A DNA stretch of 32,000 bases, from assembly GCA_964360965.1 (NCBI GenBank), contig CAYHYM010000004.1, positions 1 through 32,000 on the forward strand, read 5' to 3'. The notes beneath the pieces were generated by a model. It did not search any database. It worked only from the letters and a program-made list of their open reading frames with translations, and had not been told where the DNA came from. Origin of the DNA: an uncultured Gammaproteobacteria bacterium. GTDB taxonomy: Bacteria; Patescibacteriota; Microgenomatia; Daviesbacterales; UBA10151. This document shows positions 3,314-17,822 of this stretch, piece by piece. Position numbers and translations under genes: made by a program. Positions within the stretch are counted from its first letter, which is position 1. The number at the start of each line of letters is the position of its first letter.

Positions 3314-4552
3314 ATGTCCAAATCACTATTAAATATCTCCACATCTTTGTTAATTATCCTGGGGTTGTTTATTTATTACGCACCAAATATTGAGGCTGCT
3401 TCTGGCACGTGTATCAATAAAGATAGAAAGGGGGTAATTATTTCTACGGCCATTTGGCCAGATGATGTTCTTATTAATTTGTCAGTAAACGTCACTGTTC
3501 AATTTACCAATCAAACAGTTGCGGGTAAATACTTTGTTATCCTAAGCGACGGTAAACCAATTGGCGCCCAAGACTACTCATCTCAAATAGTTGATCTTAC
3601 CACAAGCCAGCTACGAAATGGAATAGAAGTGACTTTCCCTATTGGTCCTGTTACTGAGTATAGAGATTCTTACTACGTCAAACTACAAAGAGAGGGGTTT
3701 GGAGATATTTGTGAGCCTAGTAATTTAGGCACTATTGCAGTAGCTAACATCAGCGATAATAAGCTAAAAAAAACTCAATGTTCCATCTCTGTTCCCGGCA
3801 ATATTCAAATAGGTGATAACTTAACCATTAAATATAGCGTTTCCAATCCTCCCTCTGAAAATTCCAGATTTATTCCCCTAATTTTTAAAACAAGTAATTT
3901 TGCCAAAATGCCTACAGGTGTTTATAGAGCAACCGGGGCTCCCTTGGGAGATTTTGCCAATACCTTAATCACCCCAAAATACTTAAAACAAGACCAGGTA
4001 ACAGATCTAACCTTTCCCACTGATACAGGCACATTTAATCAAATTGAAAATTTTACAGCAGCGATGGCAGTTCAGGATGACTCCTCGGTACCAGGAGATG
4101 AAGCTAGATTATATATTTGTAAATCCGCTAATTTTAGTACCAGTAATAACCCTACGACTCCTGCCGGAACTCCTGCTACATCTGCACCTGCTGGTTTTCC
4201 AAAAGCCGGTACTGGATCAGGGGGAGGAGAAAAATGTACTTCAGGGTTTTTAGATGAAAAAAATAATCCTGTGCCGGCAATAGATACTGCCATAGGCTGT
4301 GTGCCCACAGAACCGGTGGCTTTTATCAAGGCTTTTTTGCGATTTACCCTGGCCACTTTTGGAGGGATAGCCTTTTTAATCATGGTAATGGGAGTATTTC
4401 GGATGATCACCTCTGCCGGTAACCCTGATGCGCTGAAAGCAGGACAGGAAATGTTTACCAGTGCCATTATTGGCATTTTATTTATTATCTTTTCCGTACT
4501 GCTTTTACAAATAATAGGAGTTGGTATACTAAATATACCTGGATTCAGATGA
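3314..4552 (+). CDS. Secreted large-domain protein fused to a C-terminal TrbC/VirB2-like (T4SS pilin) two-helix module
   Basis: 412-aa ORF with a signal peptide (LLIILGLFIYYAPNIEAAS). A soluble, Cys-containing region of roughly 300 aa follows. A P/T/G-rich linker comes next (NNPTTPAGTPATSAPAGFPKAGTGSGGGE). The C-terminal module is AFLIMVMGVFRMITSAGNPDALKAGQEMFTSAIIGILFIIFSVLLLQ, which matches the motif shared by the four downstream pilin genes. Confidence 0.8.
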   Translation: MSKSLLNISTSLLIILGLFIYYAPNIEAASGTCINKDRKGVIISTAIWPDDVLINLSVNVTVQFTNQTVAGKYFVILSDGKPIGAQDYSSQIVDLTTSQLRNGIEVTFPIGPVTEYRDSYYVKLQREGFGDICEPSNLGTIAVANISDNKLKKTQCSISVPGNIQIGDNLTIKYSVSNPPSENSRFIPLIFKTSNFAKMPTGVYRATGAPLGDFANTLITPKYLKQDQVTDLTFPTDTGTFNQIENFTAAMAVQDDSSVPGDEARLYICKSANFSTSNNPTTPAGTPATSAPAGFPKAGTGSGGGEKCTSGFLDEKNNPVPAIDTAIGCVPTEPVAFIKAFLRFTLATFGGIAFLIMVMGVFRMITSAGNPDALKAGQEMFTSAIIGILFIIFSVLLLQIIGVGILNIPGFR

Positions 4553-5220
4553 AACTAATCGCCCAACAAATTCCCGGAATTCCATATTTATTAAACTGTA
4601 ACCCGGTCAATCAAACAGGCTGTCCACCTGGCCAGAGCGTGCCCAGGACTGGTGCTTTAAATTTTACCAGCCTGGGGGATTTTATCTTCGGACTCTTAAA
4701 CATTGTCTTTTCCATTGCCGTATTTTTGGCCTTTTTCTGGCTGGTGTGGGGAGCTTTTCAATATATTACCTCAGGAGGGAATAAGGAAAGATTGGCTGCT
4801 GCCAGGGCCAGAATCACCTGGGCCATTGTGGGATTACTGCTGGTGGCAGTTTCCTTTCTAGTAGCCCAATTTTTGGCTCAGGTTTTACCTCCCCAAAAAG
4901 GAACACCAATTTTGTCAGTACCGACCGCTTATGCTGCTGTTGATATTGGCAAGGAGTATGGTTTTGGAGATATCCGGTCTTTAGGAGAAGGGGTCACTAA
5001 ACTGGTTGCTCCCACCTTTTCCATTGCCACCACGGTGGTGATAATATATTTTTTAATGGGAGCTTTTAAATTTTTAACCTCAGGAGGGAATAAGGAGGCC
5101 ACTGCTTCTGCCCGTGGTATGATTACCCATGCCATTGTGGGATTTATTATTTTAATGTTTGCTTTTTTGATTTTACAATTTATTCCACAAGCTTTTGGCT
5201 TAAATTTTTCGTTGTTTTAA
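4549..5220 (+). CDS. Tandem double TrbC/VirB2-like pilin (two pilin modules in one polypeptide)
   Basis: 223-aa ORF whose start forms an ATGA overlap with the upstream stop. Module a is FFWLVWGAFQYITSGGNKERLAAARARITWAIVGLLLVAVSF. Module b is IIYFLMGAFKFLTSGGNKEATASARGMITHAIVGFIILMFAF. Confidence 0.85.
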   Translation: MKLIAQQIPGIPYLLNCNPVNQTGCPPGQSVPRTGALNFTSLGDFIFGLLNIVFSIAVFLAFFWLVWGAFQYITSGGNKERLAAARARITWAIVGLLLVAVSFLVAQFLAQVLPPQKGTPILSVPTAYAAVDIGKEYGFGDIRSLGEGVTKLVAPTFSIATTVVIIYFLMGAFKFLTSGGNKEATASARGMITHAIVGFIILMFAFLILQFIPQAFGLNFSLF

Positions 5221-5714
5221 TGATAAAAAAAATAGTTATTGTAATTTTAATAAATGTCTTTTTGGGATTAGGGACATCTTCTGTCTATGCTCTTCATGTG
5301 CCACCCGGCGCTACTTGTAATCCAATAGACCCGGCAGATCATTGTAACATTGGCTATTCTTGTCTACCGGTAACAGGTACTCCGGGCCACCAATGCTTAA
5401 GACCCCAATCCACAGACACCATTGGTAAAATCAGTGCACCATTAGCCATACAAGCTTTGGGTATAGGTAATATAGGCATCAGCAAATTTTTAAATAATTT
5501 AGTCACCCTAATTTATATTTTAGCCACTGTTGTTTTAGTCTTTATGTTTTTATGGGGATCTTTGGAGTGGTTAACATCAGGAGGGGATAAGGAAGCTGTA
5601 GGAAGAGCCAGAGGCAGGATTATTAATGCCCTGGTGGGAATTATTCTTTTCGGGGTGGCTTATGCCATACTGCGGCTGTTGGGAACATTTACCGGCTTTA
5701 CATTTTTCCAATAA
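5220..5714 (+). CDS. TrbC/VirB2-like pilin with a Cys-rich N-terminal head
   Basis: 164-aa ORF with a TAATG start/stop overlap. It has a signal peptide and a 4-Cys segment (CNPIDPADHCNIGYSCLPVTGTPGHQC). The pilin module is VFMFLWGSLEWLTSGGDKEAVGRARGRIINALVGIILFGVAYAIL. Confidence 0.85.
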   Translation: MIKKIVIVILINVFLGLGTSSVYALHVPPGATCNPIDPADHCNIGYSCLPVTGTPGHQCLRPQSTDTIGKISAPLAIQALGIGNIGISKFLNNLVTLIYILATVVLVFMFLWGSLEWLTSGGDKEAVGRARGRIINALVGIILFGVAYAILRLLGTFTGFTFFQ

Positions 5715-5715
5715 A

Positions 5716-6465
5716 TTAAGAACCTCCTCCATAACGAGGTCCTTGCCCTCCACCGCCGCCTCTTCTACCCTTTCCGAAGAATCTGATAACTCTGATAACC
5801 AGGTTCATCAAAAATACCGGTATTGCTATAACTGCTACCAAACTGCCTATTACAGCAAGAATGGCGCCTGCGGATATACCTACAGTCTTTCCTATCTCCA
5901 CCACCATCTTGGGTACACCACCTGGTGAGTCAGGTGCTATTTTACGGCCTTCTATATCTTTGATAAATTCAGCCTCATACTCTTTAGCTTCTTGCTCTGT
6001 CTCCTGTCTTGCCCGCTCAAATGCCTTTTTATTTTCTTCCTGCTGTTTTGCATCAGCCTGAGCAGTTTTTTTTGATTGTTCCCAGATTACTCGCTGCTCA
6101 GGGGTCATTTTTTCCAGTAGCTCCATTTCATATGGAGTGAGTGTGGGAACCCTTTCAGGAGTGGTTACCCCTGGCCTTTCTGTTGCTCTGAGTGTGGAAG
6201 TTTTTGTTTCCACTATCTGAACACCAGCTGGTTGTTTTGGCGCCTCTCCCACTACTGGTGCGGGTTGGCTGGTAGTGTCAGCACTAAGATCCAGACAGGC
6301 AGCTGAGAAAAATACCAAACCCACCATGGGAGCTAATAAGGCTACTCTTGAAGCCGGGAGCGCTTTTCTGGTTCTTACCACAATATCATCTGCCGCTACT
6401 ATGGCGCTGGATGGTTCTATCAACTCATTTAAAACTGCTGGTTCTGTTTCTTTCATATCATCCAT
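5716..6465 (-). CDS. Hypothetical membrane protein with a charged coiled segment and a Gly/Arg-rich C-terminal tail
   Basis: 249-aa ORF. It has two hydrophobic segments (VALLAPMVGLVFFSAAC and GAILAVIGSLVAVIAIPVFLMNLVI). There is a K/E/Q-rich middle region, and the tail is GKGRRGGGGGQGPRYGGGS. The overlapping plus-strand ORFs are shorter and low-complexity. Confidence 0.6.
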   Translation of the reverse strand: MDDMKETEPAVLNELIEPSSAIVAADDIVVRTRKALPASRVALLAPMVGLVFFSAACLDLSADTTSQPAPVVGEAPKQPAGVQIVETKTSTLRATERPGVTTPERVPTLTPYEMELLEKMTPEQRVIWEQSKKTAQADAKQQEENKKAFERARQETEQEAKEYEAEFIKDIEGRKIAPDSPGGVPKMVVEIGKTVGISAGAILAVIGSLVAVIAIPVFLMNLVIRVIRFFGKGRRGGGGGQGPRYGGGS

Positions 6466-6766
6466 TCTTAGGTCCTTTTAAAGTTTCCAGATAATCTTTT
6501 TTAAAATTTTCCAATTCATGCAAAATTTTTGTCTGAAGAGATGGAATCAGACTGCCTAACATATTAATTATCACCTTACCGTCTTTCTGCTTAGTAATTT
6601 TCCCCAGTTGTTCTGTGGTAAGATCAGCGGAAAGCCTTAATAACACATACTCGCCTATTTTACTGTTTAAATGCTGCCGCATCTTATCTGTCTCCTCTGT
6701 TGATTGAGAGACGGTATTAATATTCAAAAAAATAATTGGATCAAAATCTTTTAGACTAATCAACAT
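6458..6766 (-). CDS. Hypothetical small soluble protein
   Basis: 102-aa ORF directly upstream of, and overlapping, the start of 5716-6465. A strong promoter-like element is upstream. No family was recognised. Confidence 0.55.
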   Translation of the reverse strand: MLISLKDFDPIIFLNINTVSQSTEETDKMRQHLNSKIGEYVLLRLSADLTTEQLGKITKQKDGKVIINMLGSLIPSLQTKILHELENFKKDYLETLKGPKNG

Positions 6767-6783
6767 ATTAATCCTATAGATAT

Positions 6784-6811
6784 ATTATACCACAAATTTA
6801 GCACTTGACAA
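6784..6811 (-). promoter_or_regulatory. Sigma70-like promoter for the minus-strand pair: TTGTCA-16 nt-TATAAT with TG extension
   Basis: Reverse-strand reading: TTGTCA (6811-6806), a 16-nt spacer ending in TGG, then TATAAT (6789-6784). A 17-nt leader containing AGGA precedes ATG 6766. Confidence 0.4.
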
Positions 6812-6834
6812 ATAGATAACTTACTGCATATGAT
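6805..6834 (+). promoter_or_regulatory. Sigma70-like promoter for the second pilin operon: TTGACA-18 nt-TATGAT
   Basis: TTGACA (6805-6810), 18-nt spacer, TATGAT (6829-6834). ATG is at 6846, so the leader is very short. Confidence 0.4.
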
Positions 6835-6845
6835 AAAATTAAGAT

Positions 6846-7226
6846 ATGAAAAAAGTTGCCTCAATTTTCTCTGCCTTTGGTTATCTAATATCTGCAGGAG
6901 CAGCTTTTGCTCAAACCATTACCATTGAAAGACCTGAGATCAGCGGCAAAAAGGTGGGCTTTTTAGATGTCAACCAATTCATCAAAAATGGGGTGACCCT
7001 GGCTTTTATTATTGCCCTGGTGATTGTTTTTATTATGCTGGTGTGGGGGTCAATTCAGTGGATTTTTTCCGGAGGATCAAAGGAGAATCTGGAGGCTGCC
7101 AGAAATAGAATCATTCACGCTCTGGTAGGCTTGGCTATTTTGGCGGTGGCTTTTGCCATTATTCAGCTTTTTGCCACCTTTGTGGGTGTTAATCTACTTG
7201 ATCTAAAAGTACCATCTCCAATATAA
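6846..7226 (+). CDS. TrbC/VirB2-like pilin
   Basis: 126-aa ORF with a signal peptide (ASIFSAFGYLISAGAAFAQ). The pilin module is VFIMLVWGSIQWIFSGGSKENLEAARNRIIHALVGLAILAVAFAII. Confidence 0.85.
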   Translation: MKKVASIFSAFGYLISAGAAFAQTITIERPEISGKKVGFLDVNQFIKNGVTLAFIIALVIVFIMLVWGSIQWIFSGGSKENLEAARNRIIHALVGLAILAVAFAIIQLFATFVGVNLLDLKVPSPI

Positions 7227-7235
7227 TTTTAGAAT

Positions 7236-7520
7236 ATGGGGCCACCTGAAGCTGGTTTAACTCAAATTGAAGACACTTTTAAAAATGCCATCTCTGTTTC
7301 AGTGGGACTGGCTTTTGTGGCTTTGGTGGTGGTGCTGATCTGGGCAGGCATTAAATTTTTAACCTCAGGAGGGGAGGCTAAAGCCCTACAGTCTGCCACA
7401 CAGACCGTCACCTGGGCTCTTCTGGGAATTTTATTTCTGGCCATAGCCTGGCTGGTGTTGCTGCTGATTAAAATCTTTACCGGAATAGATGTGACAACTT
7501 TTAACATTCAGGTTTTATAG
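7236..7520 (+). CDS. Minimal TrbC/VirB2-like pilin (two helices, no obvious signal peptide)
   Basis: 94-aa ORF with the module VALVVVLIWAGIKFLTSGGEAKALQSATQTVTWALLGILFLAIAWLVL. Confidence 0.75.
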   Translation: MGPPEAGLTQIEDTFKNAISVSVGLAFVALVVVLIWAGIKFLTSGGEAKALQSATQTVTWALLGILFLAIAWLVLLLIKIFTGIDVTTFNIQVL

Positions 7521-7568
7521 TATCAACGTATGTTGCAAAATAACCATTAGTTGTTTTAAACTTAAATT

Positions 7569-9164
7569 ATGTCTGTTAAGAAATTAATCTTCAGCTTAGC
7601 GGTATCTTTGGCATTTCTTTTGCTACCTGCTACCAACCACCAGCTATTAACTATCTCTGCTCAAACTACCACTTCCTCTGCCACTGCCTCTACAGCCATC
7701 AAACCATTGGGCATAGTCAGCTTTCAATCCCCACAATATATCAACCTGCAAATGATAAACCTGATGCACTCTGCCAGTTGCTTGATAAGCGGCATCTCTC
7801 CCATAAACCAACCTTGCGTGGAATACATTGGGGGTATCCCCGTACTTTCCTCTGTTAACCTATCAGGCGGTATGTTGGGTACTATCAGCACAGGATTGGC
7901 ACTACTTTATACAAATCCTCCCATCAAAAGCATTGAATACCTGGGTAGTATAGGGGACAGTTTAAGTTTTTTTGAAGTTAAACAGGCCCAAGCTCAGGTG
8001 GGAGGCTCTGGCAGCAAGGTATTATCTCCGGTTTTGGACCTTTGGAAAGTTTCAAGGAACATTGCCTATCTAACTATAATGATCATTTTTGTGGTGATTG
8101 GGGTGATGGTGATGTTTAGGAACAGAATCAATCCTCAAACAGTCATCACAGTCCAGGCAGCCCTGCCAGGCCTGGTGATTGGACTCATACTTATTACTTT
8201 CAGTTATTTTTTGGCAGCACTATTGGCAGATATTGCTTTTGTGGGCTCAAATATAGTCGGCCATTATTTTACCATTGCCCAAAGTCAAGCCATCTCTGTC
8301 AAAGGACCGGTGAACACTCTAGAAAACGAAAATGTCTTAAGTATCTTTAGCAGATTTTTTAACACCACCTCCAAAGAACAGTTTATTCCCCTATTTGACA
8401 CCATCTTTAAAAACCTGCCCACACCAGCCGCTTTAGATATTTTGACTCCTGCCCGTATGTTTACTTATGTTATTGTGGGAATGACTAACCAAATATTAAC
8501 CTTAACTGGTATATCCTCTATACCTGTAGCAGGCACTGCTACAGGTATATTTACAGGTATTAAAGGACTAACAGATGCACAGGCTACAGGATCATTTTTA
8601 GTATGGCTGATCTTAATACTAGTACTGATGTATTCCATGTTTAGAGTACTTTATCGTTTGATAATCAGTTATTTAACCATCATCTTTTTAACCATCACCG
8701 CCCCTTTTCATTTTTTAATTGCCGCTTTCCCGGGAAGACAAGAGGTGGTGACTGTTTGGGCCAGAAACATGCTGGCCAATATCCTGGTTTTTCCCGGAGT
8801 GTTGGCCATATTTTATTTTGCCGGCTATCTGATGGGGCCCACATTATTAACAAGCGCCGGTGGAGCAGGAGGATTAACTCTTAGTGATCTACTCAATATT
8901 AACAATCAATTGGGTGTGGCAGGAGCAAAAACACTGCCGCTTTTGGGAGGATTGGATCAAACAGTGATCCAGTTAATTCTGGCTTATGGCGCGCTGATTG
9001 CCGCACCAGCCATTCCGGAAATTATCATCAATGCCATAGGTAAAGTTGGTCCTGCCGGACAGACCATTGGTAGAGAGGTGACTGGAGCTATACAAAGCGG
9101 CAGAGGATACCTGCAACAAGGAGCCGGGGCAATTGGTGGAGCCTTGGGAGGCGGTAGACGTTAA
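7569..9164 (+). CDS. Polytopic membrane protein, VirB6/TrbL (PrgH/ConG)-like by topology and context
   Basis: 531-aa ORF with a signal peptide and several long hydrophobic helices (IAYLTIMIIFVVIGVMVMF, LVIGLILITFSYFLAALLADIAFV, FLVWLILILVLMYSMF, LTIIFLTITAPFHFLIAAF, ILVFPGVLAIFYFAGYL). The C-terminus is Gly-rich. It sits directly after the pilin genes. The assignment rests on architecture and synteny, not on a diagnostic motif. Confidence 0.55.
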   Translation: MSVKKLIFSLAVSLAFLLLPATNHQLLTISAQTTTSSATASTAIKPLGIVSFQSPQYINLQMINLMHSASCLISGISPINQPCVEYIGGIPVLSSVNLSGGMLGTISTGLALLYTNPPIKSIEYLGSIGDSLSFFEVKQAQAQVGGSGSKVLSPVLDLWKVSRNIAYLTIMIIFVVIGVMVMFRNRINPQTVITVQAALPGLVIGLILITFSYFLAALLADIAFVGSNIVGHYFTIAQSQAISVKGPVNTLENENVLSIFSRFFNTTSKEQFIPLFDTIFKNLPTPAALDILTPARMFTYVIVGMTNQILTLTGISSIPVAGTATGIFTGIKGLTDAQATGSFLVWLILILVLMYSMFRVLYRLIISYLTIIFLTITAPFHFLIAAFPGRQEVVTVWARNMLANILVFPGVLAIFYFAGYLMGPTLLTSAGGAGGLTLSDLLNINNQLGVAGAKTLPLLGGLDQTVIQLILAYGALIAAPAIPEIIINAIGKVGPAGQTIGREVTGAIQSGRGYLQQGAGAIGGALGGGRR

Positions 9165-10855
9165 AAGCTCTTAATCACTTTTTGCCAAATAAATTTCCCC
9201 ATTCCCTTAAACAAGAATCCATCAACCAACCATACCCCGTTAACAAAAAAGTTTGTTCCTGCAGAAGCATTAAAATGTCTCATTAAATCCTCGGCTTGAT
9301 CCTCACCAGTAGCTCCCTTTGTCTCATTAATTGCCCAGTAAAATTGTGGTCTACCCCATCTATTATAAGATTTGGTGAATTCATTGCGAAGTTTTAGTAC
9401 TCTTTGGCCCTCATCTGTATTAACATAGTTTAAAATCTGTCCCAGAACAAAGGCTCTGACTTTTTGTGGTTCTGCAGCACCATAATAGCTCAGAGAATTA
9501 AAATTACCAGCAAGCTCATTAAATGATTTTACTATATCAGGCATATTCTTTTCAGGATCATCCAAAGCTCTAGCAGGTGATATCAGGGGACTGTTAATAA
9601 ATCCACCAAGAAGTTTATCTACTAAATCGTTTGTTCCATTAACAATTACAGACCAGCCGTAAAATGAGGTGTCCGGATTATCTTTAAGTTTATCGCGTAA
9701 CTCAAGCAGATTTTTACACTTGAGAAAATAGCTTAAAGATCTGGCATGGGTATCAAAGGCCCCAATCAACTGTCTGGCTTGAACTGCAGAATGTTCTCTA
9801 CTTGCCAAAAACTCCGGGGTAAATATCAATTTGGTCCAAAGATAGGGGGAATTGCCTGATAACTGAGAATATTTACTCCTATCACTACCACTATATTCAA
9901 AGTGGTACGCTGGATTTGCCCATTGATTAACCCACTCTCTCCAGTACAGATTATTTGTCATATCTATTTTTTGACCCTTAAATACATTATTTAAAATTTG
10001 CTGTTCAACTAATTCTCCATCTTTTGTCAGGGGACCAGTAAAACGGGTGATGTCTGCGGTGGCTATATATAACCTGTAAGTTAACACAGCAGCCAATTCA
10101 GCTTGTTTTTTATCTAAACTTTGATTTTTTTGCAGTTGTTCTGATATTTGGTTTATTATCATCTCTTTTTCTTTATCACTTTTTTTATAACTTCTAAAAA
10201 CCTGGCCATTACTTTTTTCCACCCACTCAACTCCCTCTCTGACTCCCTCTATATCCCATGTCCAATTAAATGCCTCTCTAAATATAACAGCTGCCACCAA
10301 TTCTGCAAATTTTGGTCCAGCTCCAAAATTAACAGTCCACTCTGCACCACTCAGACATGCTCTAACCATGAACATCTTTTGTGCTTTTTCTATTTCCTCT
10401 ATTTCTTTTTCACCAGCACCTGATCCCATTTTAGCACTCACCAACGTATCAAATAATTCCTGATATTTATTTATCTCAGCCAGAGGTGACATGTCCTTCG
10501 CGCCTACAATATTAGGCATACGGTCTTCTAATCTAATGATTAAAGCATCAGCTATTTTCTTAATTTGCTCTGGTGTCTGATCTGGTCTAAATGGACCAAG
10601 ACCTGCAAACATCTCTGCCCCACCTTCCATCCTGGGTATTCTGGCTACTTCTTGACCGGTTTGTGGATCAAAATAAACATGGTACTTCCCTTCTACTTTA
10701 GAAGGATAATCTACCTGGGGATTTAGTTCTGGAGAACGAGTCGCCCCCACAACACTTTTTCCTGCTTCAGGAACCACCTCTTTTACTATTGGAGTAGGAT
10801 TAGGTGATTCATTTTCCGGACTATCTGATCCCTCTGCCATAATCTCTCTAGCCAT
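9161..10855 (-). CDS. Hypothetical soluble protein, no recognisable family
   Basis: 564-aa ORF with no signal peptide or TM helix and an acidic, disordered N-terminus. Its stop overlaps the VirB6-like stop within the tetranucleotide TTAA. Confidence 0.65.
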   Translation of the reverse strand: MAREIMAEGSDSPENESPNPTPIVKEVVPEAGKSVVGATRSPELNPQVDYPSKVEGKYHVYFDPQTGQEVARIPRMEGGAEMFAGLGPFRPDQTPEQIKKIADALIIRLEDRMPNIVGAKDMSPLAEINKYQELFDTLVSAKMGSGAGEKEIEEIEKAQKMFMVRACLSGAEWTVNFGAGPKFAELVAAVIFREAFNWTWDIEGVREGVEWVEKSNGQVFRSYKKSDKEKEMIINQISEQLQKNQSLDKKQAELAAVLTYRLYIATADITRFTGPLTKDGELVEQQILNNVFKGQKIDMTNNLYWREWVNQWANPAYHFEYSGSDRSKYSQLSGNSPYLWTKLIFTPEFLASREHSAVQARQLIGAFDTHARSLSYFLKCKNLLELRDKLKDNPDTSFYGWSVIVNGTNDLVDKLLGGFINSPLISPARALDDPEKNMPDIVKSFNELAGNFNSLSYYGAAEPQKVRAFVLGQILNYVNTDEGQRVLKLRNEFTKSYNRWGRPQFYWAINETKGATGEDQAEDLMRHFNASAGTNFFVNGVWLVDGFLFKGMGKFIWQKVIKSF

Positions 10856-10891
10856 CTTCCTTTCCTCCGTCTATAGTATATTATACCATAC

Positions 10892-11755
10892 TTATGGCTT
10901 CCAACCGCATTGGGGACAATTGGTTAACTGCCCTGCCTGAATTTTTTTCACTTCTTCATCATTGGCCACCCAAGAACATATGTTACAACAAATCTCAGGA
11001 CAGTTCTCTGAGGAGTTGGAGTGGGCCAAAAAGGCCTTAAAAGCAGTTAATCCATCCATTCTAATGGGACAGCTGATAACCACACCCTGTCCAAACATAT
11101 CTCTTACTTGTTCTGCATTAAAAAAGCTATCATAGATCCTCTCAGCTTGTTCCAAAGCTTTTTCTTGATCTTTTAAATCCTGACCTGTTTTTATCTTTTC
11201 CCAAATCTCCGGAGCTACAATTAACTCTTTGAGGGTGTCTATCCAATCCCCGGCGCTGAAAATTAAAGGAGTAGATCTGACTGAATTTAAGCTCAACAAA
11301 AGAGGCCTATTTTGACTTCGCTCAGCCAAAGCTTGAGCCCGCTCCAAACAATCCTCATATCTTAAGTTTAATATGATGGCTCTGTTAAGCAACCTTTTTT
11401 GACTGTTTGGGTGTAAAATTTCACTAATAATTAGTTTAGATGTGGGATAATATACTGAGTCCTGAGGACTGATCCAAACCGCTGCACCTGCCTCACTATC
11501 CCTAAACCATCTATTAATAAAATCAAAAGCCTGACCTTCTAATTGACCCACCAAATTATCTCTTTTAATAATACTGGCAACTTTACATTCCGCGGTTGGG
11601 GAATATAAATCACCATCTTTATCTTGCACAAAACAGTAAGCATCGGGAGATCTTCTTGATTCCTGGAGGCAGGAGGTTATCTCCGGGATCGCTTGTGTTC
11701 TATTATCTTTCCAGGAAGGAGCGAAATCTTTAATTAATGTATCAGCTTCAAGCAT
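10892..11755 (-). CDS. Hypothetical protein with a C-terminal Cys4 zinc-ribbon-like motif
   Basis: 287-aa ORF. Its C-terminus reads CPEICCNICSW...(about 20 aa)...CPQCGWKP. No other family was recognised. Confidence 0.65.
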   Translation of the reverse strand: MLEADTLIKDFAPSWKDNRTQAIPEITSCLQESRRSPDAYCFVQDKDGDLYSPTAECKVASIIKRDNLVGQLEGQAFDFINRWFRDSEAGAAVWISPQDSVYYPTSKLIISEILHPNSQKRLLNRAIILNLRYEDCLERAQALAERSQNRPLLLSLNSVRSTPLIFSAGDWIDTLKELIVAPEIWEKIKTGQDLKDQEKALEQAERIYDSFFNAEQVRDMFGQGVVISCPIRMDGLTAFKAFLAHSNSSENCPEICCNICSWVANDEEVKKIQAGQLTNCPQCGWKP

Positions 11756-11897
11756 GTTAGCGTCCTGCGACGCACCAGACAGTGCATCGTCATGAACCTT
11801 ACATGGTTCGTCACCGCTTAGTCAAGATATCAATCATAAGTTATTAGTTTAAAACTGATTGTCATAGATTGCCCTATAATGATACTTTTTTAGGCTC

Positions 11898-11926
11898 TTG
11901 CACAGTACTTTTTCACATTGTATGAT
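11898..11926 (+). promoter_or_regulatory. Candidate promoter TTGCAC-17 nt-TATGAT for the VirB4 operon
   Basis: TTGCAC (11898-11903), 17-nt spacer, TATGAT (11921-11926). The likely ATG at 11936 is only 9 nt downstream of the -10 element. Confidence 0.35.
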
Positions 11927-11935
11927 CGTGTGAGT

Positions 11936-12925
11936 ATGGAACCGCATCCCATTCCCCAAAATGTCACCTCGTTTGAGTTTCATCTGGTGGGTGACATGAC
12001 CTTAAAACAATTTATGTTTTTATCATCAGGTTTGGGGGTATCTTATCTGTTATTTGTTTTTCTCTCTCCCCAAAACCCGTTTCTGGCCTATCCTTTAATT
12101 CTGCTGTTTTCCTTTTTAGGAGTGGCTTTTGCTTTTATGGGCATTGCTGACCGGTCTTTAGATCATTGGCTTTGGGTTTTCATCAAAGCAGTTTTCTCCC
12201 CCACCAAAAGAGTCTGGGGAAAGGCAGGTAAATCGTATGCTCAAAATAACCTGTTTTCCCAAAGGAGCGCTTTTTTTAACCAGGTAGTCCAAACATCATC
12301 CTCCCCTTTTGAGCCAATAACCTCTCCTGTTGCTCAAACAAATGTCCAGCCCCTGCCCACAGAAGAGGAGCTGCAAAAAACAGTGACTTTGGCCAGAGAG
12401 GCCCAAAGTTTGCAGACTAGAATTATTGAATCAGAAAGACAGCTGGAAAGCATCAAGGTCACTCCCCAAAATATTTCACCCCAGCAAATTGAGGCAACCT
12501 TATCAACCTTACAAAAACTGGTCACTGAAACTTCCGGTATTAAAGAACAACTACTCAGAGCCACTCACCAAAAAGAGCAGCCAAAGCCTTCTGAAGTCAA
12601 AATCACTCCCGCCTCTTTTCAAAGACCAATACAGGCGGTGCTAACTTCCCTGCCCAATGTGATAAATGGTGTTGTCAAAGATGCTTTGGGCAATTTTTTG
12701 GAAGGGGTGGTGGTGGTAATTTATAACAAAGAAGGCCTGCCAGTCAGAGCCTTAAAAACCAATAAACTGGGTCAGTTCTCAGGCTCCACCCCCTTGCCAA
12801 ACAACAGTTACAGAATTGAACTGGAAAAGGATGATCTGTTATTTGATATTTTGCAAATAGATTTAACAGGCCTGGTTTTACCTGCCATGGAAATTTTATC
12901 TAAAAAAAGGGTTTTTCAGACATGA
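11936..12925 (+). CDS. PrgI/VirB3-like T4SS membrane protein with a C-terminal CarboxypepD_reg-like beta-sandwich
   Basis: The ORF track starts at TTG 11918, but ATG 11936 (MEPHPIPQNVTSFEFHLVGDMTLKQFMFL...) matches the usual PrgI-family N-terminus. Two TM helices follow. The C-terminus (INGVVKDALGNFLEGVVVVIYNKEGLPVRALKTNKLGQFSG) fits the carboxypeptidase-regulatory-like fold pattern. Confidence 0.65.
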   Translation: MEPHPIPQNVTSFEFHLVGDMTLKQFMFLSSGLGVSYLLFVFLSPQNPFLAYPLILLFSFLGVAFAFMGIADRSLDHWLWVFIKAVFSPTKRVWGKAGKSYAQNNLFSQRSAFFNQVVQTSSSPFEPITSPVAQTNVQPLPTEEELQKTVTLAREAQSLQTRIIESERQLESIKVTPQNISPQQIEATLSTLQKLVTETSGIKEQLLRATHQKEQPKPSEVKITPASFQRPIQAVLTSLPNVINGVVKDALGNFLEGVVVVIYNKEGLPVRALKTNKLGQFSGSTPLPNNSYRIELEKDDLLFDILQIDLTGLVLPAMEILSKKRVFQT

Positions 12926-13641
12926 ATACCACCCAGCAACATCTTCAGATGGAGGATATAAAAGATGATCTGATGATTTTGAAAAATGGCGGAGCGGCTT
13001 TGATTTTACAAAGCTCAGCTTTAAATTTCGGGCTGTTATCAGAGGTTGAACAACACTCAGTGGTGTTGTCTTTTGCCCAGATGCTCAATTCCCTGTCTTT
13101 TCCCATCCAGATTATGATTTATTCCCAAAGGCTCAATATTAACTCATATCTTCATTTGTTGGAGCGAGCCCGAACAATGCAGAGGAATCCCCTTCTTTCT
13201 CAAATGATTGACCGTTATAAAAACTTTGTGACTCAGGTTATTAAAGAAAATGATGTTTTGGATAAAAAATTTTATGTCATAGCCTATACCTCTTCTTTGG
13301 AGATGGGATTTGGTTTTAAAAATAAGGAGGCAAGATTAAAAAGAGCTCAAGCCATACTTTGGCCAAGAAGGGATCAGCTGATAAGGCAACTGGCCCGAGT
13401 GGGGCTAAAAGCAAACCAGCTGACCAGCCTGGAAATGCTGCAGCTTTTATATGATATTTATAACGGGGCGCAGCAGGATGTTCTACAAATTCCTCCTGTC
13501 AAACTTTCTCCCCCTCCACCTCCCCCAAACCCACCCCGGCCAAATCCAGTTCAAACAGCAGCTGCGCCACCTTCGCAAACTATTATAAATCAACCTAAAA
13601 ATCACCCTTTTGTGGTGGAGGAACTGGAGGATAATGTTTAA
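12922..13641 (+). CDS. ATPase-less protein resembling the N-terminal domain of Gram-positive VirB4 homologues; proline-rich C-terminus
   Basis: 239-aa ORF with an ATGA overlap upstream. DIKDDLMILKNGGAALILQSSALNFGLLSEVEQHSVVLSFAQMLNSLSFPIQIMIYSQRLNINSYL resembles the N-domain pattern of Tn916 Orf16-type VirB4 proteins. There is no Walker motif. The tail reads PPVKLSPPPPPPNPPRPNP. Confidence 0.5.
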   Translation: MNTTQQHLQMEDIKDDLMILKNGGAALILQSSALNFGLLSEVEQHSVVLSFAQMLNSLSFPIQIMIYSQRLNINSYLHLLERARTMQRNPLLSQMIDRYKNFVTQVIKENDVLDKKFYVIAYTSSLEMGFGFKNKEARLKRAQAILWPRRDQLIRQLARVGLKANQLTSLEMLQLLYDIYNGAQQDVLQIPPVKLSPPPPPPNPPRPNPVQTAAAPPSQTIINQPKNHPFVVEELEDNV

Positions 13642-15364
13642 GGGCACACCCCAATTAACCCTGGAGGATATCATCGCCCCCCAAGAACTGGAGATTGATT
13701 TTAATCATCTTAAAATCAATGACAGATTTTACCGCACCTATTTTATCTCCAGCTACCCGCGATTTGTGGAGCCTAACTGGCTGGAACCTTTAATTTCTTT
13801 TGACCATTCGCTTTTTATCTCCATGTTTGTCTATCCCACCTCATCCAGGGGGGTGCTGGATGATCTACGGCGCAAAATTGCCGAGATGGAAGCCACCATA
13901 GAAGGTGATGTTGAGCGTGGACGGGAAATTGATCCAACAGTCAGAGTGGCTTTGGAGGATGCCCAGTCTTTACAGGAAGAACTGGTTAGGGGGGTGGAGA
14001 GATTTTTCCAGTTTGCCCTCTATATCAGCGTGCCTGCCCAAGATAAGGAGGATTTGCAAAATACCTGCCAGCTTTTTGAATCCACTGCCTCCTCTTTGTC
14101 TTTGAGCGCCCAGCCAGCCAGCCTGCAAATGGAAGATGGCTTTAAATCCAGTCTGCCTTTGGGATCTGACCTGTTGTATCTGACCCATAATATGGACACC
14201 CCAGCTCTCTCCACCACTTTTCCTTTTGCTTCGTCGGAGCTGACAGCCAATGAGGGAGTGATGTATGGCATCAATGCGCATAATGACTCCCTGATTCTTT
14301 TTGACAGGTTTTCTTTAGAGAATGCGAATTCAGTGGTGTTTGCCAAATCCGGCGCGGGAAAATCATATTTTGTTAAACTGGAAATTTTAAGGTCTTTAAT
14401 GTTTGGCACGGAAATTTTGGTGATTGATCCTGAGAATGAATATTTAAACCTGTGCCAGGCAGTGGGAGGCGAATATATTAACTTTTCCGCCACCTCTGCT
14501 GTTAAGATCAATCCTTTTGATCTGTCTTTAAGCTTATCTCCTGAGGAAAATGAGCTGGGCAGAAAGATATTATCTTTGACCGCCTTTTTAAAACTGGTGT
14601 TGGGCCAGCTAAACCCCCAGGAGGCGGCCATTTTGGATCGGGCTTTAAAACAAACCTACAGGTTAAAAGGCATCACTGATGACCCTAAAACCCAAATTCA
14701 GCCCCAGATAAGCACCCCTTTAATGGAGGACCTTTATAAAATACTCATCGGTATTGAAGAAAAACCGGCTCTGGATCTGGCAGCACGCTTAGAAAGATTT
14801 ATCAAAGGCTCGCTGACCGGTATTTTCTCCTCTCACTCAAACATCAATCTGTCCTCCTCTTTCACTGTTTTTTCCATCCGGAATCTGGCAGACCAGCTGC
14901 GGCCTTTGGCCATATTTATGATCCTGGAATATATCTGGACTAAAATACGCTCACAGCTTAAAAAAAGAATCCTGGTGGTTGATGAAGCCTGGTATTTGAT
15001 GAGAAATGAGGATTCGGCCAATTTTCTGGTGGATATTGCCAAAAGAGCCCGTAAGTATTTTTTGGGACTGACCACCATCACCCAGGATGTGGAGGATTTT
15101 TTAGGTACTGACCGGGGCAAAGAAATCATTGCCAATTCCTCCATTCAGGTACTTCTTAAACAAGCCCCATCATCCATTGAAAAAGTGGGGGGGACATTTA
15201 ATCTGTCAGAGGGAGAAAAAAGGCTGCTTTTATCAGAAGGGGTGGGAGAGGGACTCTTTTTTGCCGGCAATACTCATGTGGCCATGAGAGTGGTGGCCTC
15301 ACCAGAAGAACACAAATTAATTACCACCAGTCCGCAGGAAATATTGGCAAGACAAAACATTTAG
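13634..15364 (+). CDS. virB4: VirB4/TrbE/CagE-family T4SS ATPase
   Basis: Walker A is FAKSGAGKSYF (about 14341-14373) and Walker B is RILVVDEAWYL (about 14967-14999). The N-domain (YRTYFISSYPRFVEPNWLEPL) is typical of VirB4. The preferred start is ATG 13634, preceded by GGAGG (13626-13630) and overlapping the upstream stop. The track start 13610 is in the same frame. Confidence 0.9.
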   Translation: MFKGTPQLTLEDIIAPQELEIDFNHLKINDRFYRTYFISSYPRFVEPNWLEPLISFDHSLFISMFVYPTSSRGVLDDLRRKIAEMEATIEGDVERGREIDPTVRVALEDAQSLQEELVRGVERFFQFALYISVPAQDKEDLQNTCQLFESTASSLSLSAQPASLQMEDGFKSSLPLGSDLLYLTHNMDTPALSTTFPFASSELTANEGVMYGINAHNDSLILFDRFSLENANSVVFAKSGAGKSYFVKLEILRSLMFGTEILVIDPENEYLNLCQAVGGEYINFSATSAVKINPFDLSLSLSPEENELGRKILSLTAFLKLVLGQLNPQEAAILDRALKQTYRLKGITDDPKTQIQPQISTPLMEDLYKILIGIEEKPALDLAARLERFIKGSLTGIFSSHSNINLSSSFTVFSIRNLADQLRPLAIFMILEYIWTKIRSQLKKRILVVDEAWYLMRNEDSANFLVDIAKRARKYFLGLTTITQDVEDFLGTDRGKEIIANSSIQVLLKQAPSSIEKVGGTFNLSEGEKRLLLSEGVGEGLFFAGNTHVAMRVVASPEEHKLITTSPQEILARQNI

Positions 15365-15379
15365 TGGTAACCTAAGGTT

Positions 15380-17368
15380 ATGGCTGCCAGAGACACCCAA
15401 CTTTTTAGACTGCTTTTTGAACCCAATGGAGTGATCGTTCAGTTTTACAAAAATCCCCAAACAGCTTATGTGGTGGCTGGTGGACGCTATTTTAGTAAAA
15501 GAGCTACTCTGAGACTGCTGCGTTTTCTACTACCTGGCTATAGAGTCTATCAAGAGGATAATCAGCTGGTTGAACAATTATACAGAAATCAGGCTGTTGA
15601 TTTTAACATCAAAAGTTTAACATTTTACACACCAGAACCCATCCTATCAGAATTTGCTCACAATCAGTTAGAAAAAATAGACCAACTACCTATTGAAGTC
15701 AGAGAACAAACTCAAAACCTATGGGCAGAAAGGTGGCAACTACCACAAAACCAAAAAGAAGTTGATCTTCATTATTTACTGAGACTTCCCCACCGAATCC
15801 CCATAATAATAAAAAGATTAATTATCCATAACATCCCCCCATTAAAAGCGTTGAGGTATTATCAGGTTAAAGCACAAATTTTTGCCAAAAGACTTCTCAG
15901 AAGAGTTATTACAACAAGACTGACTACAGGTTTAATTGGGGCGGGGATAGGGGGTGGTCTGGCAGGACTACCCGGAGCATTAATGGGGGCTGCTTCAGGG
16001 TGGTTTGCTCCCTCTTTTATTGCCGGCGGTGGTGGTAGTTTACTTTTCAGGATAGGTGGACTTTTGACGGGTGGGGGCAGCAATATTTTATTGGGGCTGG
16101 GTAGATTGGCTCTTGTCTCTTTCCCTGTTACAGCTGTGGTGGTGGCTGTAGGACTGACTGTATTACTTATTATTGTTGTTATTATTTTACCCACCGCCCA
16201 ACTAACTCCATCTCCTATTGTCGAAGCTGGATTGGTTGGCAATCTTAACAGTTGCCGGTTTACCAGGGATGCGGTGTTAAGACCGGTTAAAAGCGCCGGG
16301 CTTTTGAAAATTTTTCAAGAGGTAGCTGCTCAATCCGGGGTTCCCGCATCAGTGCTTGCTTCGGTAGCCATGCATGAAAATCCCATTTTTACATCTTCGG
16401 CCGAAGATAGTCACGATGTTTTTGGTAATGTTGGTTTTAGTGGCCTGGATTGTTTACCGCATTTTCCCACCTCAGATACCGGAGCTTTGGGACTGATGCA
16501 GGTACAGCCTCCCAAAAATATTCACGATCAAATCAAGTCAAAAGCAGTACCCTCTTTTGAAAAAGTAGCAGCTTATTCTGAAACCGGGGTAACAATTGGC
16601 GCACAGTTTGTGGGTAAAACTGCAGATTCTCTAACATTTCAGGATTTTTGCGATATTAGAACCAATATCTACCTGGGGGCTGGAGTTTTAATCAGTAAAA
16701 ATGGCGGTAAACCACCTGCCACTCCAGATGAGGTGGAGGAAGCTGTCTGCCGTTACTTTGGAGGAAGCTGTTTTTACCCTCATCCTGTAAGTGGACCGTA
16801 TCACTATGGTACAGAGGCCAGAAAAGATTTTGACAGCTGCCAGCAATTATTGATAGCTTCCACTGCTTGCCCGTCACAGGGGGGAAAGATCAAAACACCA
16901 TCTTATCAAATCAATCCCTCTATTGGCCACTGCAGTCCATTTTATGGAGTATGCCCTACCAACAGTCGCAGAGCCAAAGCCATTGATGTGGATACCAGAG
17001 GACAAGATATCATCTTTCCCACCATTTTAGGGCAAAAAGTAAGTTGGCAGTACCTAACACAGTTCTTGCTTAATAAATCAGGTGATTGTGAACTGGGGCT
17101 TTCTTCTTGCGGGATTGGGGTGGTCTTCCAAACCAGTGTGGACACTGATACCTGGGTACTACATTTACTTCATCTGGACAGTAACAACACCCTGTCCTTT
17201 AAGCCAGGATTATTGGCTGATTCTGGAACGGTTGTTGGTAAAACCATCCCCGGGGTTTTCCTGCATGTTAACATAGGCAAGAATATTAAAAACCCCGACA
17301 GTCCTTCCGGGGGTGATAAAGACTTAGATCCTGGCTGGATAGCGGCAGATTTTATGTGTAACCAATGA
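15380..17368 (+). CDS. Membrane-anchored T4SS cell-wall hydrolase (PrgK/CwlT/VirB1-like): SLT lytic transglycosylase domain plus a degenerate M23/LytM-like domain
   Basis: 662-aa ORF with a cytoplasmic N-region of about 180 aa. The TM region is Gly-rich (GLIGAGIGGGLAGLPGALMGAASGW...GGGGSLLF). The SLT pattern is AMHENP...GALGLMQV...NIYLGAGVLI...CRYFGG. The C-terminus has the M23 layout (AIDVDT...WVLHLLHL...GVFLHVNIG), but the first His of HxxxD is missing. Confidence 0.75.
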   Translation: MAARDTQLFRLLFEPNGVIVQFYKNPQTAYVVAGGRYFSKRATLRLLRFLLPGYRVYQEDNQLVEQLYRNQAVDFNIKSLTFYTPEPILSEFAHNQLEKIDQLPIEVREQTQNLWAERWQLPQNQKEVDLHYLLRLPHRIPIIIKRLIIHNIPPLKALRYYQVKAQIFAKRLLRRVITTRLTTGLIGAGIGGGLAGLPGALMGAASGWFAPSFIAGGGGSLLFRIGGLLTGGGSNILLGLGRLALVSFPVTAVVVAVGLTVLLIIVVIILPTAQLTPSPIVEAGLVGNLNSCRFTRDAVLRPVKSAGLLKIFQEVAAQSGVPASVLASVAMHENPIFTSSAEDSHDVFGNVGFSGLDCLPHFPTSDTGALGLMQVQPPKNIHDQIKSKAVPSFEKVAAYSETGVTIGAQFVGKTADSLTFQDFCDIRTNIYLGAGVLISKNGGKPPATPDEVEEAVCRYFGGSCFYPHPVSGPYHYGTEARKDFDSCQQLLIASTACPSQGGKIKTPSYQINPSIGHCSPFYGVCPTNSRRAKAIDVDTRGQDIIFPTILGQKVSWQYLTQFLLNKSGDCELGLSSCGIGVVFQTSVDTDTWVLHLLHLDSNNTLSFKPGLLADSGTVVGKTIPGVFLHVNIGKNIKNPDSPSGGDKDLDPGWIAADFMCNQ

Positions 17369-17375
17369 AAAGCCA

Positions 17376-17822
17376 ATGAAAAAAGTAGTTATAGTTTTTA
17401 TAATCATCTTTGCTATTATATCCATAACCAGAATTATATCCATAAACAGATCTGTTTTTCTAAAACCAGAACAGCTACCCACTGTTGCACCAGAACAATT
17501 AAAAATTATCTCCACCAACCCCCACCCCCTGGATGAGGCAACCATTCTACCCACCCAAAATATTGAATTTACTTTTAATAAACCCCTGTTTAGAAGCCAG
17601 TTTAAACACAAGTTTGATCCGGACATTGAACATGAGGTAGAAGTTATTGACGGCCGGGATAAAGAGTTTGGACAAACCTTCAAAATAGTTTTTAAAAAAC
17701 CACTGGAACTGGGCCTGGGATATGCTTTATTTGTATTTACCAACACTAAAACAGAGGGGGGTCTATTTTTAGATAAAGAGTATGTTTTCCATTTTCAAAC
17801 TATTAAATACAAAGGCTTTTAA
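17376..17822 (+). CDS. Membrane-anchored Ig-like (SbsA/Big_5-type pattern) protein, hypothetical
   Basis: 148-aa ORF with an N-terminal TM helix (VVIVFIIIFAIISI). The sequence LKIISTNPHPLDEATILPTQNIEFTFNKPL...FKIVFKKPLELGLGYALFV...FHFQT fits a bacterial Ig-like pattern. It is the last gene of the VirB4 operon. Confidence 0.55.
   Translation: MKKVVIVFIIIFAIISITRIISINRSVFLKPEQLPTVAPEQLKIISTNPHPLDEATILPTQNIEFTFNKPLFRSQFKHKFDPDIEHEVEVIDGRDKEFGQTFKIVFKKPLELGLGYALFVFTNTKTEGGLFLDKEYVFHFQTIKYKGF

Follow-up and report, generated by a model that had tools for sequence, protein, structure and literature searches.

We analyzed a 32-kb window of DNA (the whole stretch, counted from its first letter) from a Daviesbacteria-like Microgenomate, a member of the Patescibacteria, or Candidate Phyla Radiation (CPR). 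Positions 3314-17822 of this window hold a well-preserved Patescibacteria type IV secretion system (T4SS) that carries pilin genes and lies beside the replication origin (oriC). Open reading frame (ORF) listing and family scans divided the plus-strand genes of the locus into two co-oriented groups. The first consists of five pilin genes followed by the gene for a 531-aa polytopic protein; the second encodes a PrgI/VirB3-like protein, a TrsD-like protein, the VirB4 ATPase, a 662-aa hydrolase, and a 148-aa anchored protein. Interspersed with these are four minus-strand genes, two of them inside the pilin array (5716-6766) and two between the groups (9161-11755). The features of the locus are as follows.

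3314..4552, plus strand: pilin 1, 412 aa, with a signal peptide, a ~300-aa ectodomain, a Pro/Thr/Gly-rich linker, and a C-terminal pilin module (TSAG loop)
4549..5220, plus strand: pilin 2, 223 aa, two fused modules with four hydrophobic helices
5220..5714, plus strand: pilin 3, 164 aa, with a signal peptide, a Cys-rich N-terminal segment, and one module
5716..6766, minus strand: two inserted genes, for a 249-aa membrane protein with a charged coiled region and for a 102-aa protein
6846..7226, plus strand: pilin 4, 126 aa, with a signal peptide and one module (FSGG loop)
7236..7520, plus strand: pilin 5, 94 aa, a bare module without signal peptide
7569..9164, plus strand: polytopic VirB6-like protein, 531 aa, about seven hydrophobic segments
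9161..10855, minus strand: orphan soluble protein, 564 aa, without hydrophobic segment, in the slot between the operons
10892..11755, minus strand: soluble protein, 287 aa, with a C-terminal Cys4 zinc-ribbon-like motif, divergent from the PrgI gene
11918..12925, plus strand: PrgI/VirB3-like protein, 335 aa, with a two-helix N terminus, a long linker, and a C-terminal beta-sandwich-like domain
12922..13641, plus strand: TrsD-like protein, 239 aa, a free-standing counterpart of the VirB4 N-terminal domain
13610..15364, plus strand: VirB4 ATPase
15380..17368, plus strand: predicted VirB1-type wall hydrolase, 662 aa, with a folded N-terminal domain, a Gly-rich region and transmembrane helix, an SLT-like core, and an M23/LytM-fold C terminus
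17376..17822, plus strand: Ig-like membrane-anchored protein, 148 aa, with an N-terminal hydrophobic anchor, the last gene of the operon

The core of the second group was readily assigned. VirB4 exceeded the cut-off of the conjugative-transposon model NF045971 (379 bits; cut-off, 325) and matched Pfam P-loop_TraG (E = 1.7e-28), and both its Walker A (KSGAGKS) and Walker B (LVVDEA) motifs are readable. It is 54 to 77% identical to CPR homologs and at most 37.6% identical to plasmid VirB4s (72,556 plasmids; monoderm hosts, CD1110 family). In a published survey of 3,035 CPR genomes, 2,425 of 2,474 CPR VirB4s formed one clade nested in the mating-pair formation (MPF) class FATA, and only 37, outside this main clade, grouped with archaeal VirB4s (PMC12102498). 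Together, the identities, the model scores, and this published phylogeny indicate that the window VirB4 belongs with the CPR VirB4s, nearest to MPF-FATA. The TrsD-like protein matched the NCBIfam TrsD/TraD model NF041427 (E = 8.5e-5) and the N-terminal part of two VirB4 models. The PrgI-like protein matched PF12666 (39.4 bits), with a further weak CarboxypepD_reg match at residues 249-303; an Embleya homolog is likewise long, at 349 aa. These scores substantiate the PrgI, VirB4-N-like (here TrsD), and Walker-intact VirB4 assignments made in a preliminary description of the locus. The translation starts probably lie at ATG 11936 for PrgI and at ATG 13634, overlapping the TrsD stop codon, for VirB4; we revised them to agree with gene calls made independently on a second assembly of this sample.

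A genome scan for VirB4 yielded 586 confirmed loci. All counts out of 80 given here refer to the best 80 of these, searched by tblastn with the window proteins. All 80 came from CPR genomes or from mislabelled CPR metagenome-assembled genomes (MAGs), the closest being Daviesbacteria (76 to 77% identity). VirB4 was present in 80 of the loci, TrsD in 75, PrgI in 72 (with both ends of the protein conserved), dnaA in 61, dnaN in 60, yidC in 49, and jag in 45. The gene order was constant: pilin array, VirB6-like gene, a variable stretch of 2 to 8 kb, PrgI-TrsD-VirB4, a second variable stretch of 0 to 6 kb, dnaN, and dnaA. Because the order PrgI-TrsD-VirB4-dnaN-dnaA recurs in about 60 of the 80 related genomes, we conclude that this is a vertically inherited chromosomal system and not a mobile element. 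Many of these genomes (among them L001, L007, L011, and L013) were deposited as "uncultured Gammaproteobacteria" or "Pseudomonadales" MAGs. Those labels look wrong, since the genomes contain CPR-type loci that are 55 to 77% identical to the window locus.

The T4SS locus adjoins a minus-strand block with the hallmarks of a replication origin, whose genes were assigned with Pfam.

17819..20971, minus strand: replication-origin block, comprising dnaN, a transmembrane protein with an Endonuc_Holl-like domain, dnaA, and DnaA-box clusters
17819-18994, minus strand: dnaN
18991-19440, minus strand: transmembrane protein with an Endonuc_Holl-like domain
19595-20926, minus strand: dnaA
19433-19609 and 20936-20971: DnaA-box clusters

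DnaA boxes numbered 23, compared with 9.6 expected, and the plus-strand GC skew, read from left to right, changes from negative to positive at about 15 to 20 kb. The end of the T4SS operon reaches 1 bp into the dnaN stop region, and the DnaA-box clusters and the GC-skew switch lie 1.6 to 3 kb away from it. No tRNA gene was found in the 32-kb window. The preliminary description, which had the locus abutting dnaN and dnaA and not a tRNA, was therefore accurate on this point. The other genes of the window are housekeeping genes (rnpA, yidC, jag, a flippase, RNase H, an epimerase/DUF4012 gene, L25, valS, and tsaD). GC content is uniform across the locus (0.40 to 0.46); the first 1-kb bin, which spans the intergenic stretch 3084-3313, has 0.35.

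Two further observations concern the origin region. Both T4SS operons run toward the putative origin and so meet the leftward replication fork head-on; plus-strand GC skew is negative across the operon stretch at 9 to 15 kb, and the convergent arrangement of VirB4 (plus) and dnaN (minus) is repeated in related loci. This head-on orientation nuances a published gene-dosage idea. The 149-aa protein encoded between dnaA and dnaN (18991-19440, minus strand) has an N-terminal hydrophobic segment and an Endonuc_Holl domain, which is related to archaeal Holliday junction resolvases, and is found at the same position with 65 to 69% identity in seven Daviesbacteria-like loci.

Genes for self-transfer were missing from the DNA that we searched, which comprised the window and 9.6 kb past its right end (about 41 kb in total), the extension being a contig of the same sample (L087). 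Within this DNA, we found no relaxase, VirD4, or integrase, and tblastn with three type IV coupling protein (T4CP) sequences gave no match in the window or extensions. The right extension contains chromosomal and toxin-antitoxin genes only, with no transfer genes. The preliminary description had reported the first three absences for the window, and they extend 9.6 kb rightward. Its characterization of the machine as coupling-protein-less stands for this stretch but not for CPR genomes at large: VirD4-like genes occur in 2,918 of 3,035 of them, mostly far from virB4 (PMC12102498), and 7 of the 80 related loci have a T4CP-like gene beside PrgI. Among the genes on the extension are Fic/MazE and PIN toxin-antitoxin genes, a PDDEXK nuclease, a class-A beta-lactamase-like gene, and a glutaminase-ankyrin fusion.

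In the first group, motif scanning and alignment recovered exactly six two-helix VirB2-like modules in the five plus-strand pilin genes. The modules are 14 to 45% identical to one another and share a loop, (W/M)G..(W/Y/F)(I/L)(T/F)S(G/A)G, after which come K/E and A/R-rich residues. Against the T4SS_pilin family PF18895 (cut-off, 26.6 bits), the genes scored 51.4 (pilin 2, over two stretches), 42.1 (pilin 3), 33.9 (pilin 4), 26.2 (pilin 5), and 14.3 bits (pilin 1), so that three passed and one fell 0.4 bits short. For pilin 1, the weakest case, the module scored 35.7 bits against a hidden Markov model (HMM) built from the other five modules; 1,000 shuffled sequences reached at most 9.9 bits. 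Pilin matches to the TrbC/VirB2 family PF04956 remained below its threshold (13.9 to 15.8 bits; cut-off, 27.9). The motif scan, PF18895, and the local HMM thus agree with the six modules in five genes that had been proposed from the sequence alone.

The individual pilins differ in architecture. Pilin 1 has hydrophobic segments at residues 2-24, 338-356, and 377-411. Its N-terminal part had no homolog by tblastn in the 80 related loci, and by this comparison its ectodomain appears to be lineage specific. Pilin 2 narrowly reached the cut-off of the NCBIfam Mbov_0395 pilin-like family (40.8 bits; cut-off, 40), and in the related locus L004 its two halves are adjacent separate ORFs. Pilin 5 is 65% identical to its orthologs in L004 and L008. 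Pilin 3 appeared to be split in a second assembly; the split consists of a run of N and a 7-nt gap and is not a variant. The 249-aa and 102-aa proteins inserted on the minus strand had no Pfam match above noise and no homolog in the 80 related loci, and L004 and L006 have the pilin array without any interruption. Positions 6784-6834 contain a strong pair of divergent promoter-like sequences. Solved conjugative pili have pilins with both termini pointing outward. Should the same apply to this system, topology would permit a tandem pilin, and the filament would be decorated by the ectodomain. Models of how a heteropolymeric pilus could be built are constrained by the two-module fusion and by the pilin with the ectodomain.

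The polytopic protein that follows the pilins (7569-9164) is present as previously described, with seven hydrophobic segments, and the TrbL/VirB6 HMM found no match in it. Direct searches of Pfam, NCBIfam, and the PDB were negative for the 531-aa protein, as was a search of the PDB with its family profile, and neither it nor 50 relatives scanned matched PF04610, PF19597, or PrgH profiles. The family is nonetheless large, with 303 close homologs and 3,311 cluster representatives at 50% identity. An AlphaFold2 (AF2) model of the protein (mean predicted local distance difference test [pLDDT], 71) was compared with 350,542 PDB chains using Foldseek. TrwI/VirB6 of R388 took ranks 1, 2, 3, and 5, with weak scores (probability, 0.66 to 0.69; E = 0.2 to 0.7). 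By hhalign, the family aligned with a position-equivalent 779-aa protein of Pontibacillus over 325 columns (probability, 80%; E = 1.4e-5), and this Pontibacillus protein in turn matched Pfam TrbL/VirB6 at E = 2e-4, below the Pfam cut-off. An hhalign comparison with the TrbL of Bacillus cereus was negative. Distant family members gave sporadic weak TcpE and TrbC-like hairpin matches and none to TrbL. We conclude that the 531-aa protein probably fills the VirB6 role in Microgenomates. This candidate matters because the published survey found VirB6 to be "scarce" in Microgenomatia and suspected extreme divergence (PMC12102498): a Pfam-invisible family with more than 3,000 cluster representatives is a candidate for the VirB6 that HMM surveys have missed in Microgenomates. 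As a separate observation, 3 of 40 members of the family carry Hint or intein-type domains (best E = 7.5e-5).

Two predicted wall- and surface-associated proteins complete the second operon. The 662-aa protein had no match in direct searches of Pfam, NCBIfam, and the PDB, and its profile retrieved only low-complexity noise from the PDB (e.g., ribosomal L19). Its 24 relatives all come from CPR metagenomes. A transmembrane helix at about residues 248-269 precedes an SLT-like core (290-490) and an M23/LytM-fold domain (495-660). The core contains the family-conserved motifs HE(S/N), TGALGLMQVQ, and YLGAGVL; Glu333, GLMQ, and the YLGAG-type motif are invariant in the family. We take HE(S/N), GLMQ, and YLGAG to be the classical motifs of family-1 lytic transglycosylases. 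Weak Pfam SLT matches appeared in 3 of the 24 relatives (best E = 1.4e-4). The AF2 model (pLDDT, 77; domains, >85) consists of a folded N-terminal domain, a single transmembrane helix, a helical domain, and, at the C terminus, a beta domain, and Foldseek matched the last of these to the M23/LytM peptidases ShyA, Csd3, LytM, and lysostaphin (probability, ~1; E = 1.5e-3 to 3e-2). In the window protein, H-V-N replaces the HxH motif, which most relatives keep, and the HxxxD histidine is missing; catalysis by the LytM-like domain is uncertain for this reason.

The C-terminal domain is exchanged among relatives of the hydrolase for CHAP or canonical M23 domains. We scanned 53 ORFs, namely the window's hydrolase and the first large plus-strand ORF after VirB4 in 52 related loci, and found 12 canonical M23, 3 CHAP, and 2 NAGPA domains; 15 of the ORFs were dnaA itself. 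The 945- to 962-aa proteins of L015 and L022 are transmembrane-plus-CHAP hydrolases by Pfam and not T4CPs. The 662-aa protein is best read as a predicted VirB1-type bifunctional hydrolase. Of the SLT and M23-like activities first ascribed to it, the M23/LytM fold was recovered by Foldseek, and the SLT part rests on motifs and the weak matches in relatives, since the protein itself has no Pfam match. For the 148-aa protein, which occupies the same position in six Daviesbacteria-like loci, the membrane anchor was upheld; the Ig-like designation derives from one weak Big_5 match (E = 0.05).

Between the VirB6-like gene and PrgI lies a slot that varies strongly among genomes. In the window, it encodes the 564-aa and 287-aa soluble proteins. 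The former retrieved itself as the sole match among 5.8 billion clusters and had no similarity in Pfam, NCBIfam, the PDB, or hhalign comparisons. The latter had no Pfam, NCBIfam, or PDB match and has homologs at the same position in L001 (31% identity) and L047. We surveyed the 23 related loci (among L004-L079) in which both flanks of the slot were seen. All 23 contained opposite-strand ORFs, 527 to 1,337 aa long in 22 of them. None of the slot ORFs had a Pfam domain, and only two of the ORFs put through a hydropathy scan had a hydrophobic segment. Slot proteins from different genomes showed almost no similarity by BLASTP, iterative HMM searches, or hhalign, and PDB profile searches were negative. 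Even where the flanking VirB4s are 71 to 82% identical, slot proteins range from unalignable to 63% identity, and genomes with unalignable slot proteins include ones whose VirB4s are 71 to 77% identical. In 7 of the 80 related loci, all from Microgenomates, the slot holds a T4CP-like ATPase gene divergent from PrgI (L021:5574-7766 and L026:5567-7738, both minus strand; by tblastn also L027, L033, L036, L062, and L080), with TrwB_AAD_bind, DUF87, and TraG-D_C domains. It is absent from the window, which has the gene for the 287-aa zinc-ribbon protein there, and from the closest Daviesbacteria relatives.

The locus belongs to what has been described as the Patescibacteria T4SS, and its headline oddities were published between 2023 and 2025; it is a new example and not a discovery. 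Wang et al. (2023) found that the cluster SEML1_0006-0019 of Southlakia epibionticum is closest to Gram-positive conjugative T4SSs, contains an essential pilin series, and has no recognizable coupling protein or relaxase (PMC10633639). Transposon sequencing showed this cluster, pilin array included, to be essential for epibiotic growth; comEC is not (PMC10633639, PMC12857230). Quinonero-Coronel et al. (2025), in the survey cited above, reported TrsD, PrgI, and VirB6 near virB4; 441 VirB2 arrays of 2 to 11 genes with a mean identity of 25%, especially in Microgenomatia and Saccharimonadia; only 109 relaxases, 15 of them near virB4; and virB4 near dnaA, dnaN, and rnpA in Microgenomatia and Paceibacteria (PMC12102498). 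A 2025 review restates these points and speculates on a pilus conduit (PMC12857230), and a 2024 perspective called the role of the CPR T4SS completely unknown (PMC11665869). The earlier view that such loci are uncharacterized must therefore be narrowed: distribution, pilin arrays, relaxase absence, dnaA linkage, and essentiality in S. epibionticum are in the literature.

With the published systems, the window locus shares an MPF-FATA-affine VirB4, a separate TrsD, PrgI/VirB3, a candidate VirB6-like protein, predicted hydrolases downstream of virB4, a divergent pilin array, the absence of relaxase and T4CP genes nearby, and a location next to dnaA and dnaN. It departs from them in several respects. 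Whereas published HMM searches found VirB6 scarce and PrgI mostly unlinked to virB4 in Microgenomates, the window has PrgI and a probable VirB6, both of them linked to virB4. It also has a two-module pilin fusion and a pilin with an ectodomain of ~300 aa, and its pilin/VirB6 operon is split from the VirB4 operon by the hypervariable slot.

Gram-positive MPF-FATA systems (pCF10 Prg/Pcf, pGO1 Trs, pIP501 Tra, and Clostridioides difficile CTn2 CD1110/CD1115) have in common with the window PrgI, the split of VirB4 into TrsD- and TrsE-type proteins, a polytopic protein, probably of PrgH/VirB6 type, a predicted two-domain hydrolase (SLT plus peptidase) with a membrane anchor, resembling PrgK, TraG, and CwlT, and the lack of VirB7, VirB9, and VirB10. 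However, they have a relaxase, oriT, T4CP, and surface adhesins and reside on plasmids or integrative and conjugative elements (ICEs), whereas the window locus lies in the chromosome at oriC, has a pilin array, and shows none of those genes nearby. The same gene order was found on a megaplasmid of Pontibacillus sp. ALD_SL1 (NZ_CP062975.1, about 351.8-361.4 kb; L090 7032-17024): two PF18895 pilins, a TrbL-like polytopic protein, PrgI-like and TrsD-like proteins, a CD1110-family VirB4, and an M23/NlpC hydrolase. Its VirB4 is 37% identical to that of the window (E = 8e-125), the TrsD-like proteins match at E = 7e-28, and no relaxase or T4CP is annotated within 12 kb. This cluster, of which we found no mention in the literature examined, differs in belonging to Bacillota, in lying on a large replicon typed as non-mobilizable, and in having only two pilins; it is not at an origin and is wedged between chemotaxis and flagellar genes.

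On the Bacillus cereus plasmid pJ62_2 (NZ_AP022966.1), a VirB2-family pilin gene likewise immediately precedes a PrgI-like gene, VirB4, and an SLT/C40 hydrolase gene, but VirB4 is full length and unsplit, VirD4 (CD1115 family) and TrbL are present, and the system is plasmid borne. This pilin (104 aa, L092:10601-10915) is too divergent to match the six-module HMM of the window. It passes both PF04956 (41 bits) and PF18895 (35.6 bits) and thereby links the two families. The Mycoplasma ICE resembles the window locus in its Mbov_0395 pilin-like protein, whose cut-off pilin 2 reaches, and in its VirB4, Mbov_0397, whose model matches the window VirB4 (272 bits) and TrsD (E = 3.8e-7). It differs in that this VirB4 score is below the cut-off of the model (590) and in that these ICEs are mobile, with their own DDE recombinase. 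Gram-negative VirB/D4 systems (Agrobacterium tumefaciens VirB, R388 Trw) share the two-helix VirB2-type pilin and the inner-membrane logic of VirB3, VirB4, and VirB6, with TrwI/VirB6 as the best structural match of the 531-aa protein; homologs of their VirB5 and VirB7-11 were not detected in the window locus. The statement that Gram-positive T4SSs lack VirB2-type pilins, made in the preliminary description, proved too strong because pilin-bearing relatives exist in Bacillota, namely the B. cereus and Pontibacillus systems. Given these relatives and the match of pilin 2 to the Mycoplasma family, CPR pilins need not be borrowed from diderm systems; the relatives in Bacillota suggest that the monoderm ancestor already had them.

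We think it likely that the locus is an MPF-FATA-derived, monoderm T4SS of the Patescibacteria clade, chromosomal and beside oriC, vertically inherited, and serving host interaction. That it is a chromosomal, non-self-transmissible, monoderm-type machine with VirB2-like pilins, as initially proposed, agrees with our tests and with the literature (PMC12102498, PMC10633639). By analogy with characterized T4SSs, PrgI and TrsD would dock VirB4 at the membrane, and VirB4 would pull two-helix pilins from the membrane and polymerize them on the VirB6 platform, while the hydrolase would open the peptidoglycan. The product could be a short heteropolymeric pilus or conduit. The ectodomain of pilin 1 probably decorates this pilus and gives it contact specificity. 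Saccharibacteria genetics and the CPR lifestyle suggest, again by analogy, that the machine serves host-cell interaction and not self-transfer. Our leading guess is contact-dependent protein delivery to the host, followed by import of host macromolecules and then by pure adhesion. The slot of large, soluble, signal-less, fast-evolving proteins next to the machine counts weakly for delivery.

Several points weigh against this reading. No pilus has been seen for any CPR T4SS, and no experiment has been done in any Microgenomate. No VirB8-like component was identified, and the VirB6 assignment combines three individually weak signals. The LytM-like domain of the hydrolase may, judging from its replaced residues, be non-catalytic. 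Effector export normally needs a coupling protein, and the locus has none in the window or the 9.6 kb beyond it. Finally, the slot proteins may be unrelated to secretion.

An alternative is that the locus encodes a ComB-like or Ced-like machine for DNA uptake, bringing in host DNA or nucleotides for a bacterium that cannot make its own. Nucleotide synthesis is missing from CPR bacteria, the locus lacks a relaxase and T4CP, and, since S. epibionticum can dispense with competence, the T4SS has been proposed as a candidate route for the import of nutrients or DNA (PMC11665869). VirB4 is weakly similar to the archaeal import ATPase CedB, but its score of 53.5 bits is far below the cut-off of 700, and its score against the ComB-type VirB4_CagE model TIGR00929 is also below the cut-off (121 bits; cut-off, 643). 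The best VirB4 matches are conjugation-type CD1110 and the Mycoplasma ICE, no ComEC, ComEA, or DprA-type partner was found in the window, and the main clade of CPR VirB4s does not group with archaeal ones, as only 37 do (PMC12102498). We therefore rejected the ComB/Ced reading and regard DNA uptake as unlikely. An even less probable explanation is an adhesive pilus or attachment organelle that translocates nothing. The six pilin modules, one with a large ectodomain, the Ig-like anchored protein, and the lack of a coupling protein at the locus would fit such an organelle, and F-like T4SS pili are known to take part in adhesion and biofilm formation (PMC12491478). Yet type IV pili already attach CPR bacteria, as shown in Saccharibacteria (PMC10633639), the T4CP-like ATPase beside PrgI in 7 of 80 related loci suggests substrate handling, and the full VirB3/VirB4/VirB6/VirB1 translocon set is kept.

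A further alternative is a conjugative or decaying integrative element, with its relaxase, coupling protein, and integrase located beyond the ends of the window. VirB4 does pass the cut-off of a conjugative-transposon model, an Embleya relative has a T4CP and a relaxase-like gene directly downstream of VirB4, and the DNA to the left of the window lies outside the searched stretch. However, the same site, with its dnaN-dnaA-rnpA-yidC-jag flank, is occupied in about 60 of 80 genomes at VirB4 identities of 54 to 77%. GC content is uniform, there is no tRNA or integrase, and the 9.6 kb to the right are chromosomal. Relaxases are also rare across CPR genomes, rarer still near virB4 (PMC12102498). 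We rejected an ICE on the conserved chromosomal synteny and on the absence of a relaxase, T4CP, or integration module from about 41 kb, and we consider any mobile element very unlikely.

Two other genes of the window may bear on the cell envelope. Directly upstream of the first pilin gene and divergent from it, positions 1362-3083 (minus strand) encode a secreted protein of 573 aa that combines a long coiled coil (weak PcsB-like match) with a SpoIID domain, a possible candidate for an additional wall-remodelling factor. At 24957-27785 (plus strand), adjoining the polysaccharide flippase, a 942-aa fusion of an N-terminal NAD-dependent epimerase-like Rossmann segment with DUF4012 probably functions in envelope glycan biosynthesis.

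Few machines have been shown to be essential for the epibiotic life of this huge and mostly uncultured branch of bacteria. The Patescibacteria T4SS is among them, and the window provides a clean example from a Microgenomate, with all core parts together. Its slot of orphan soluble proteins offers testable substrate candidates. It is conceivable, although we hold this idea only tentatively and think it rather doubtful, that the slot is a cargo bay whose proteins are the effectors that the Patescibacteria T4SS takes as substrates, or else novel proteins that process such substrates, and that these proteins diversify with host range. If this were true, the fused double pilin and the pilin with the ectodomain would likewise be adaptations of this host-contact interface specific to the lineage.

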